Below, in pieces: positions 55,294-56,889 of a DNA stretch of 64,000 nucleotides. Each line of letters starts with the position of its first letter. Position 1 is the first letter of the stretch. A program made the translations under genes and the position numbers. The stretch comes from an uncultured Isosphaeraceae bacterium (lineage in GTDB: Bacteria > Planctomycetota > Phycisphaerae > Phycisphaerales > SM1A02). The notes under the pieces are model-generated. The model was given only the letters and a program-made list of their open reading frames with translations. It did not search any database and was not told the DNA's origin. The stretch covers positions 4,450 through 68,449 of the forward strand of contig CAZFZT010000001.1 of the NCBI GenBank assembly GCA_964523675.1, given 5' to 3'.

Positions 55294-56889
55294 CATCCAA
55301 TGGAGCACCACTCACTTCGCATCGCCTCCAACATGGACGGCGTCACCTTTGACGATGTCCTGCTCATCCCGCGGCTGAGCAATGTCACGCCGGATAAAAC
55401 CGACACGTCCACTCGTCTGACGCGAAATATTCGGCTGAACATCCCACTCGTCTCCGCACCGATGGATACGGTCACGGAGTCTGCCCTGGCGATTGCGCTG
55501 GCGCAGGAGGGCGGCATCGGCATCATCCACAAGAACCTCAGCATCGAAGCGCAGGCCCGCGAAGTCGCCAAGGTCAAACGCTCCGAGAACGGCGTCATCA
55601 CCGACCCGATCACGCTGAGCCCCGAAGACACGATTGATCGCGCGATGCGGCTGATGGATGAGCAAAACGTCTCGGGCTTCCCGGTGACGGTCGATGGGGC
55701 CGGCCGCAGCCGTGTCGTCGGCATCCTGACCCGACGAGACATGAAGTTCATCGGGGGCAAGGACCAAGGGATTGAGGGATCAAGGGACCGAGGAGTCGGG
55801 TCGACTCGATCCCTTGATCCCTCGATGACTGGATCCCTTCTGGTGGGCAACGCGATGACGAGGGAGAATCTGATCACCGCACCGCCCCAAACGACGCCTG
55901 AGCAGGCCGAGAACATCCTCAACCGCGCGCGAGTCGAGAAGCTCCTGCTTGTAGACAGCGCTGGCAACCTCGCCGGTCTTATCACGATGCGGGACATCGA
56001 TAACATTCGCAAGCATCCGGGCGCCTGCCGCGATGAGCGTGGTCGGCTGCGCGTGGGTGCTGCGGTCGGTGTCGGTGAAGCGGGGCTTGACCGGGCTGAG
56101 GCACTTGTCCGGAGCGAGGTTGATGTACTTGTCGTTGATACCGCGCACGGCCACTCCGCCAACGTGATTAACACCATCCGCGAGATCAAGGCGCGATACA
56201 ACATCGAAGTCATTGCTGGCAACATTGCCACGGCCGAGGCGGCCCGTGATCTGATCGAAGCCGGCGCCGATGCAGTCAAAGTCGGCATCGGTCCCGGATC
56301 GATCTGCACCACCCGCATCATTGCAGGCGTTGGTGTGCCGCAGTTGACCGCCATTGCAAATGCAGTGAGCGAAGCCAGCAAGCACGGTCCCGAAGGTGTT
56401 CCCGTCATCGCCGACGGCGGCATTCGCCAGTCTGGTGATATCGCCAAGGCCATCGCAGCAGGCGCATCGTCTGTCATGCTCGGTTCACTCTTTGCGGGTC
56501 TCGATGAAAGTCCTGGCGAACTCGTCATTCATCAGGGCAGACGATTCAAGACGTACCGCGGCATGGGCTCGACCGGCGCGATGGGCGCGGGCTCCGCAGA
56601 TCGCTATGCACAAGCCGGCGTCGCCCAGTCGGGTCAGACCAATAAGTTCGTCCCCGAAGGCGTCGAAGGCCGCGTGCCGTATCGAGGCAAGTTGTCTGAA
56701 TTCACTTACCAGATGGTCGGCGGGGTGCGCTCAGCCATGGGCTACTGCGGCTGCGCGACGATCGATGAACTGCGCACGCAATCTCAGTTCGTCCGCATCA
56801 CCGGCGCAGGCGTCATCGAATCGCATCCACACGACATCCAGATCACAAAGGAAGCGCCGAATTATGTGACGGCGGAGGTGGAGCGGTAG
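55285..56889 (+). CDS. guaB: Inosine-5'-monophosphate dehydrogenase
   Basis: [21 protein letters not shown] pair, [11 protein letters not shown] catalytic loop, IADGGIR.SGDIAKA, GRVPY.G. The real start is probably ATG 55300 (MEHHSLRIA...). Confidence 0.95.
55757..55836. repeat. Octamer-periodic palindrome inside guaB
   Basis: GCAAGGAC CAAGGGAT TGAGGGAT CAAGGGAC CGAGGAGT / CTCGATCC CTTGATCC CTCGATGA CTGGATCC. Positions 55774-55792 pair with 55805-55823 over 19 nt with 1 mismatch. Confidence 0.85.

Follow-up and report, generated by a model that had tools for sequence, protein, structure and literature searches.

An octamer-built palindrome read in frame within a planctomycete guaB gene, a probable copy of a dispersed repeat family

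The stretch of DNA analysed here (the window, 64 kb from a Phycisphaerales metagenome-assembled genome (MAG) of the Planctomycetota) carries a guaB gene, encoding IMP dehydrogenase (IMPDH), in which an 81-nt palindrome of tandem octamers is read in frame. We consider it probable, at roughly 75%, that this segment (positions 55759-55839) is a copy of a dispersed family of palindromic repeats, which entered the linker between the two CBS motifs (CBS1 and CBS2) after the lineage had split from its nearest sequenced relatives, was tolerated there, and is translated as a by-product. A preliminary description, made from the sequence alone, had proposed that the extra peptide was the by-product of a nucleotide-level element. 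The match of the segment to a profile of the dispersed family, and a second in-frame copy in the fumC gene, support that proposal.

The guaB open reading frame (ORF) was intact and encoded 534 aa, with PDB entry 3tsb as the best structural match (E = 4e-169). The protein had an IMPDH barrel with its catalytic Cys loop and two CBS motifs; PF00478 and PF00571 were precomputed on P0001, an NCBI protein of 529 aa that starts at Met6 and is 100% identical to the window GuaB, insert included. All 150+ columns that were invariant in an alignment of 88 homologues were retained, including the catalytic loop. The true start is probably the second ATG, at 55300, because a promoter-like TTGACA-16-GATAAT (55266-55293) overlaps the first. 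CBS1 ends with TRRDMKF and CBS2 begins with VGNAMT; the element lay between the two, in frame and free of stops, and encoded 27 residues, which made the loop 24 residues (72 nt) longer than the canonical one. Query residues 157-183 faced only 3 residues of 3tsb, and about 24 residues are therefore extra. From T.RD..F to MT the window had 44 residues, whereas almost all of the 40 other bacterial loci compared had 20, a difference that bears out the in-frame extra segment first noted in the CBS region.

The insert formed a hairpin with two full arms of 32 nt each (55761-55792 and 55805-55836), 81% complementary and separated by a 12-nt spacer, as determined with a repeat finder. Its core arms, GAGGGATCAAGGGACCGAG (55774-55792) and CTCGATCCCTTGATCCCTC (55805-55823), were complementary at 18 of 19 positions, and the 14-mer GAGGGATCAAGGGA occurred exactly once per strand, at 55774 (+) and 55810 (-). 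Each arm contained four head-to-tail copies of the unit GGAYCRAG or its complement, and so qualified as a long simple sequence repeat (units of 5-11 nt repeated beyond chance). The lag-8 base match was 71% in each arm, a value equalled by 0 and 1 of 2000 shuffles (P ≤ 0.0005), and Tandem Repeats Finder (TRF) reported a period of 8/16 for both. Folded as RNA, the insert reached -53.9 kcal/mol, compared with -36.8 ± 3.6 kcal/mol for shuffled sequences (z = -4.8, 0/200 as good); folded as DNA, it reached -24.6 kcal/mol (z = -5.2). These data confirm the near-perfect 19-bp palindrome and the 8-nt periodicity of both arms that were originally reported. An alternative register of the central loop GAGTCGGGTCGA allows internal pairing of GAGTCG with CGACTC, and five G3+ tracts were counted across the G-rich arm and its flanks. 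A scan around guaB found no intrinsic terminator, and the hairpin had no terminator-like tail.

The C-rich unit CTTGATCC reads TGA in one of three frames. In guaB, two C-rich units lie in the CT-TGA-TCC frame, and there CGA (Arg175) and GGA (Gly183) replace the stop, which fits the survival of stop-free versions only. These details also bear on whether the palindrome is an assembly or amplification artefact, a fold-back chimera formed within guaB. Palindromes are a known product of chimeric amplification, and the guaB copy has been seen in one assembly only. However, the arms are imperfect and contain unit variants, unlike those of fold-back chimeras; the frame is kept, and units prone to stops are free of them. 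Moreover, family members occupy like positions in numerous assemblies made independently; one of these, a JGI metagenome, has an orthologous copy in fumC. An artefact is thus extremely unlikely.

The preliminary description had called for a comparison with close relatives, and this showed that the insert is lineage-specific. Among the matches listed in a GuaB scan of a genome collection, relatives with ≤70% identity, none carried the insert. The closest named relatives were Phycisphaerales MAGs, with identity of at most about 75-80%, and the loop was short in most of the 120 closest homologues. In a neighbour-joining tree of 477 core columns, the query grouped with P0002, P0003 and P0004, the nearest GuaBs, all of which lack the insert. 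The DNA encoding P0002 (locus L209, 74% identical) had 18 nt at the site where the window has 90 nt, a net difference of +72 nt. An orthologous peptide of the same length, conserved without a palindrome, which had been named beforehand as evidence against an element, was not found; the inserts of other lineages were non-homologous.

This loop was the dominant internal indel site of the protein, with inserts of at least 5 aa in 20 of 121 GuaB sequences. In 18 other Phycisphaerales GuaBs, 5-29 extra residues occurred at exactly this loop, and other internal positions were far behind. From one clade to another the inserts had no sequence relationship, and in the tree they were mixed with sequences lacking an insert, which indicates several gains or losses. 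At the DNA level, one relative (L001) had a clean tandem array of AGGCACGA x4 without a hairpin partner and another (L002) had a weak hairpin; in four others (L083-L086) the insert was too degenerate to be placed in an element family. In P0042, the insert in the GuaB loop (VNVHTSKRPNVQRT...) is the expected translation of the reverse-complement unit (AACGTCCA)n, and judging from the peptide it would be such an array. Other arrays were seen near guaB in the same relatives. Upstream of guaB in L001, inverted octamer arrays (GAGGGGGT)n (1124-1161) and (TCACCCCC)n (1609-1648) enclosed a whole small gene of 123 aa (23S_rRNA_IVP / bAvd-like), an arrangement resembling a hairpin-array pair around a gene. 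In L002, a row of nine tandem octamers (ACGTTTAG/ACGTTTGG) lay directly downstream of guaB, at 4650-4726.

The structure of the window GuaB was predicted by AlphaFold2 with an alignment (mean predicted local distance difference test score (pLDDT) 79, predicted template modelling score (pTM) 0.82). Residues 154-180 were modelled as coil with pLDDT 53-59, between CBS motifs with values above 90. The prediction thus places the insert in a hydrophilic loop without defined structure that belongs to the regulatory Bateman module and lies clear of the catalytic barrel, in agreement with the permissive surface loop suggested earlier.

To describe the family, a pattern derived from the guaB and fumC copies, AAGGSAYYRAGGSAY-N8-38-RTSCCTYRRTSCCT, was scanned against metagenome contigs. 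At least 120 stretches matched, for a chance rate that we estimate at about 4e-13 per position and strand, and every copy among the matches listed had further units beyond the pattern. An nhmmer profile was then built from 80 metagenome copies only, with the window excluded. Positions 55759-55839 of the window matched model positions 1-84 with E = 6e-15 (-) and 8e-15 (+), the fumC copy matched with E = 1.3e-4, and a single arm at 31851-31881 with E = 0.03. Against 955 kb of other loci, the sole match of the profile was the fumC copy of L087, a locus of another metagenome organism. The guaB insert has the architecture of the family, with inverted arms of at least two tandem AAGGSAYY units each around a loop of 8-38 nt (AAGGGATTGAGGGAT ... 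ATCCCTTGATCCCT in the window). Family copies measured 47-110 nt (median 69), and their arms covaried: the S position was concordant in 136/152 (Fisher P = 1e-24) and the Y position in 129/152 (P = 4e-18).

The surroundings of 76 unique copies were analysed, with genomic context taken from rough gene calling. No target-site duplication was found in any of them; the number of matching flank bases was chance-like, at 0 nt in 57, 1 nt in 12 and 2 nt in 7, and never more. Seventeen copies lay inside long ORFs, 13 between convergent, 22 between tandem and 6 between divergent genes. Intergenic copies were a median of 17 nt from a gene 3' end, and about a fifth of all copies were inside ORFs, in frame. 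Arm length changed in 8-nt steps. At the orthologous loci L099 and L144, with flanks 95% identical, the difference was +8 nt in one arm and +41 nt in the other, which shows a rapid change in unit number of the kind that slippage would produce. The host contigs of the metagenome copies ranged from 27 to 71% GC, many came from soil, peat and sediment, and one carries an Acido-Lenti-1 RNA. Given this GC range and this RNA, the family probably extends beyond Planctomycetota.

Pfam confirmed the hosts of several in-frame copies: UvrB, a Ser/Thr kinase domain, the PHP region of DnaE, aldehyde dehydrogenase, class I/II aminotransferase and N6/N4 DNA methylase. As the element is palindromic, the G-rich arm is read first on either strand, and the encoded peptides consisted of cyclic permutations of KGSRDQGI from the G-rich arm followed by SLDPSIPR from the C-rich arm. 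A census with a peptide profile gave 13 weak matches, mostly tiny ORFs called across intergenic copies. In two related metagenome organisms (L112 and L160), in-frame copies occupied the same UvrB loop, between LLDYFDFAPPG and RPNFRDWLCIIDESHVT, as inserts of 34 and 29 residues; uvrB was the third essential gene with such behaviour. No Rfam family was found for the elements, with only tRNAs matched in the window and sub-threshold, microRNA-like hairpins among the metagenome copies. A search for the repeat sequences in the literature library used returned only human polymerase chain reaction primers and no bacterial paper, and a search on octamer or heptamer arrays in Planctomycetes found nothing specific. 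This family of small palindromic DNA elements is apparently undescribed so far.

These observations allow a local origin of the guaB insert to be weighed. In that case, an 8-nt motif already present in the loop would have been multiplied by replication slippage and then copied in inverted orientation by template switching, and nothing would have moved in. Such an origin would accord with the whole-unit changes between the arms of near-identical loci, with the lack of target-site duplication, and with the many 7-8-nt arrays of unrelated units in this genome (9 against about 0.6 expected). The insert-free site of L209, GTCGATGATCCTCGCTCG, also holds TCGATGA and TGATCC, as the C-rich arm does. 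However, this resemblance between the empty site and the element was not significant, since about 10% of other 24-nt windows scored as well. The whole 81 nt, beyond the unit alone, matches a profile built from unrelated loci (E = 6e-15), and a family copy sharing a 12-mer occurs in fumC of the same genome. Metagenome contigs contain the same unit family in at least 120 stretches, a recurrence that independent slippage of random motifs would not yield. A local origin therefore seems rather unlikely.

The second family copy in the window, partly decayed, provided a test of how such inserts evolve. It was one of the nine arrays of period 7 or 8 counted in the window, lay in frame in fumC, 6 kb from the guaB insert, and added about 28 residues, with query residues 89-118 facing 2 residues of PDB 3rrp. 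The fumC and guaB inserts shared the 12-mer CGACTCGATCCC, which adjoins the loop, together with flanking units, and their local alignment score was 30, compared with a maximum of 25 among 2967 random windows. Locus L087 (P0123; FumC 78% identical) had an orthologous insert of equal length (6326-6413). There it formed a nearly perfect hairpin, with (AGGCATCR)x4 in both arms and a folding energy of -63 kcal/mol, and the guaB insert aligned to about 80 nt of its roughly 93 nt with a score of 54. Relative to L087, the window fumC copy had lost much of its pairing. The closest FumC, P0122 (82%), was without the insert.

Between the window and L087, identity at the three codon positions was 0.82/0.89/0.56 in the rest of fumC and 0.81/0.74/0.81 in the insert. 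Third positions of the insert were thus conserved above those of the rest of the gene (25/31, binomial P = 0.004), independently of frame. The uvrB pair showed the same flattening, with 0.76/0.79/0.69 in the insert and 0.90/0.93/0.59 elsewhere. Amino-acid identity showed the reverse pattern, at 55% in the fumC insert against 80% elsewhere in that protein, and over the fumC and uvrB pairs at 55% in the inserts, far below the 80-87% in the rest of the proteins. These comparisons suggest that the constraint on the inserts acts on the DNA rather than on the peptide. The flattened codon pattern can reflect selection on the element, gene conversion among copies, or separate recent insertions, all of which act at the nucleotide level. 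For the fumC pair, the codon-position result agrees with the reading of the guaB insert as a nucleotide-level element.

The codon positions also bear on a protein-level explanation, under which a disordered Bateman loop was selected for tuning the nucleotide regulation or the assembly of IMPDH, and the palindrome is incidental. The 18 other Phycisphaerales GuaBs extended at the same loop would suit it, as would the position of the insert, three residues past the CBS1 nucleotide-binding motif T-x-x-D (invariant T149 and D152). Tandem repeats of Borg elements are reported to create new disordered regions under selection (PMC9879509). However, the GuaB inserts are non-homologous between clades and missing in the nearest relatives, and no structure was predicted for the window insert by AlphaFold. 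The peptide translates the palindrome exactly, and the same signature appears in unrelated host proteins. The low amino-acid identity of the fumC and uvrB inserts comes without a codon signature of protein selection. Adaptation of the protein is accordingly a very improbable origin of the insert.

A further explanation is that the hairpin does something of its own in the guaB gene or transcript and is retained on that account, wherever it came from. It could be cut by RNase III, make ribosomes pause between the two CBS motifs, switch between G-quadruplex and hairpin, or form an array to which a protein binds. The very stable RNA fold, the five G3+ tracts, the covariation of arms across copies, and the conservation of fumC third positions above the neutral level would all be in keeping with such a role. 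The intergenic copies lie close to gene 3' ends, like the repetitive extragenic palindrome (REP)-like hairpins of mRNA ends, and paired tandem octanucleotide sites in Geobacter have been proposed as binding sites for regulators (PMC2700814). However, the nearest guaB relatives do without the element, and the host genes of the family are functionally unrelated. Within genes the pairing is not strictly maintained, as the loss of much of it in the window fumC copy indicates. Neither a terminator-like tail nor an Rfam family was found, and the excess conservation would also result from gene conversion among copies or recent independent insertion. A function of the hairpin in guaB thus appears improbable.

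None of these four alternatives fits the evidence as well as a dispersed palindrome that entered guaB. Under this preferred reading, a few AAGGSAYY octamers in tandem make up one arm of each element and their reverse complement the other, and the guaB copy would have come into the DNA for the CBS1-CBS2 linker at the DNA level. It would persist because its length keeps the frame, the host frame is stop-free, and the loop is hydrophilic and unstructured, off the catalytic barrel. The peptide would be a mere translation of the palindrome, a piece of selfish or structural DNA, and not a designed protein feature. Spread presumably occurs by a mechanism that leaves no target-site duplication; candidates are an enzyme of the HUH/RAYT type that recognises hairpins and works in trans, or else template switching or gene conversion mediated by the hairpin. 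The arrays would grow and shrink through replication slippage. Most insertions into genes would be lethal, so that survivors would be seen in permissive loops only.

Several points weigh against this reading. The nearest guaB relative shares only 74% DNA identity, and no filled and empty pair defines the exact boundaries of the insertion. The guaB copy comes from a single assembly (P0001: 1 member, 1 contig), and translation of the insert is deduced from its frame and its avoidance of stop codons. No transposase family was found by Pfam in 51 of the 53 called ORFs of the window, and no copy with an identical loop occurs elsewhere within it. The other 7-8-nt arrays of the window have quite different units, which shows that the genome makes or tolerates such arrays generally and leaves room for a local origin.

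The closest analogue of the family, by resemblance, appears to be the Rickettsia palindromic elements (RPEs). RPEs are described as palindromes in frame in unrelated metabolic genes (PMC10969869, citing Ogata et al. 2000). RPEs and the octamer family are both small dispersed palindromes with many copies in frame in unrelated housekeeping genes, both encode a family-specific peptide at places compatible with the fold and the function, and both recur across related genomes. The guaB insert, read from its sequence, has the defining feature of an RPE, an in-frame palindromic repeat in a coding gene that is read as extra peptide. However, RPEs as described there are about 100-150 bp, restricted to Rickettsia, and not made of tandem octamers, whereas the octamer family measures 47-110 nt, has arms whose unit number changes, and is present both in Phycisphaerales that live freely and on many contigs from soil, peat and sediment; the two were compared by description, not by sequence. 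As the host is a Phycisphaerales MAG, the family would be an analogue of RPEs and not a member.

REPs, which by definition lie outside genes, are marked by a conserved tetranucleotide tag, GTAG or CGTC, at the 5' end of the palindrome, and a REPIN consists of two inverted REPs in one long hairpin; both are mobilised by RAYT transposases of the IS200/IS605 type. The octamer family resembles them in its short, imperfect, multicopy palindromes, which lie mostly just downstream of genes and have no target-site duplication. It differs in that about a fifth of its copies are inside ORFs and in lacking the tag: neither GTAG nor CGTC is present in the family consensus AAGGGACTAAGGGACT...AGTCCCTCAGTCCCT or in the guaB copy. 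No RAYT or Y1_Tnp was found by Pfam among the called ORFs scanned (51 of 53) in the window. [quoted passage not shown] MITEs are, however, defined by a target-site duplication and by a parent insertion sequence with the same ends. A strict MITE identity was rejected, as no duplication was found in the 76 unique copies.

Tandem arrays of 7-8-nt units have been reported in several bacteria, with the units GGGAATC in Xanthomonas and GGGGAYT in Nostoc (PMC4692102) and TAACTGA in Beggiatoaceae (PMC4679880). Geobacter metallireducens has paired tandem octa- and heptanucleotide sites, and its GGACCGG x4 elements occur within genes (PMC2700814). Like the octamer family, such arrays have G-rich tandem units, usually about four; they are mostly intergenic, though GGACCGG is also found inside genes, and sometimes form inverted pairs on opposite strands. 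Variation in their unit number is attributed to polymerase slippage. They differ in being reported as arrays, or as pairs at variable distance, that are mostly putative regulatory sites. The octamer family is instead one compact hairpin with a family profile, recurrent in frame in conserved enzyme loops.

Coordinates of the guaB element and its parts, and of other repeats in the window
Feature	Position	Strand	Evidence or comment
guaB (IMP dehydrogenase), host of the element	55285..56889	+	ORF list; PDB IMPDH chains, E = 4e-169
Octamer-periodic palindromic element, 81 nt, encodes K159-L185	55759..55839	+	Match to 80-copy metagenome profile
G-rich arm, four tandem octamers GGACCAAG GGATTGAG GGATCAAG GGACCGAG	55761..55792	+	Repeat finder, TRF, lag-8 test
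Central loop GAGTCGGGTCGA, 12 nt	55793..55804	+	Sequence read, repeat finder, folding
C-rich arm, four tandem octamers CTCGATCC CTTGATCC CTCGATGA CTGGATCC	55805..55836	+	Sequence read in guaB frame
Second family copy, partly decayed, in fumC (class II fumarate hydratase, 60845-62365)	62023..62108	-	PDB 3rrp; profile E = 1.3e-4
Intergenic arrays (GCCTACAGCCG)x2.9 and (GCCAACA)x4.4, upstream of guaB	55188..55255	+	Real tandem repeats, not of the element family
Possible half element, one arm AGGCACGT AGGCACGA AGGCACAT	31851..31881	+	Profile E = 0.03; TRF period 8

The preliminary description had also placed arrays related to the insert on either side of guaB, and this was upheld in part. The upstream region at 55188-55255 does contain tandem repeats, with periods of 7 and 11 (P < 0.0005, shuffles). 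The G-rich segment at 55161-55186 and the downstream segment at 56893-56940 were periodic at chance level (P = 0.22 and 0.18). The guaB-flanking arrays were rejected as members of the element family, as none matched the family profile.

A UbiD-family gene probably has its true start downstream of the possible half element at 31851-31881, and its UbiD domains begin beyond that element. The called ORF (29798-32002, -) over-extends this gene by about 53 codons and so spans the half element; MTFPTLQ precedes the start of the Pfam domains. Two of these, UbiD_N and Rift, were 20-40 residues longer than the Pfam models, and the gene may therefore contain further loop insertions.

Among the period-7/8 arrays of the window, (GGCGAAGG)x4-5 (34955-35005, -) was in frame, as IGEGRRGEGAEERRKDE, within an ORF of 1121 aa (34205-37570, -) that had no Pfam match. 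Either it is a further in-frame array, with units of another family, or an open frame has joined two genes. An intergenic spacer was bracketed by two heptamer arrays in inverted orientation, (AGGAGCT)x2.4 (38195-38211) and (TAACTCC)x6 (38294-38342). The latter encoded MELGVRSQELGVRS, the tail at the C-terminus of an N6/N4 DNA methylase (38299-39066, -), together with the stop codon of that gene, and the former stopped a few bases ahead of the ATG of the next gene. Two further inverted pairs of 7-8-nt arrays were intergenic: CAGGTGT/CAGGAGT with ACACCTG-like partners (2355-2385 / 2437-2467), and CACAGAGG with CCTCTGTG (3848-3871 / 3977-4001). Inverted array pairs of the unit CAGGTGT/CAGGTTT also occurred in the Acidobacteriota loci L039 and L050, and pairs of GGTCAGG in the Planctomycetaceae locus L023. 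This suggests that pairs of the CAGGTGT and GGTCAGG types are further cross-phylum families of like architecture. Separately, cumulative GC skew climbed across the window and turned over at about 56-60 kb, near dnaN (58071-59183), efp and a tRNA. The turnover could be a replication origin or terminus; no dnaA was found in the window.

Palindromes that colonise housekeeping genes in frame have so far been regarded mostly as a peculiarity of Rickettsia. The same behaviour is seen here in a free-living planctomycete and, by the metagenome scan, in many environmental bacteria. The build of these elements is unusual, with hairpin arms of tandem octamers whose length changes in 8-nt steps, and offers a tractable case for how small palindromes spread without a visible transposase. 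A wider proposal, possible but doubtful at present, is that octamer hairpins are a cross-phylum class of self-propagating DNA with its own mode of spreading, directed by structure or sequence to certain sites and without target duplication. If true, this would explain why particular loops of essential enzymes are hit more than once, namely the CBS1-CBS2 linker of guaB, the N-terminal loop of fumC and the loop of uvrB before DESH. The elements would then be maintained at the nucleotide level within coding sequence and would be a general generator of disordered loops in core proteins instead of passengers met now and then.

The guaB case shows where new disordered loops in essential enzymes come from and which loops tolerate them. 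It also matters for the annotation, alignment-based phylogeny and structure prediction of MAG proteins, in which QGIKGSRD ... SLDPSIP / SLDASMP is to be read as translated repeat DNA and not as a domain.

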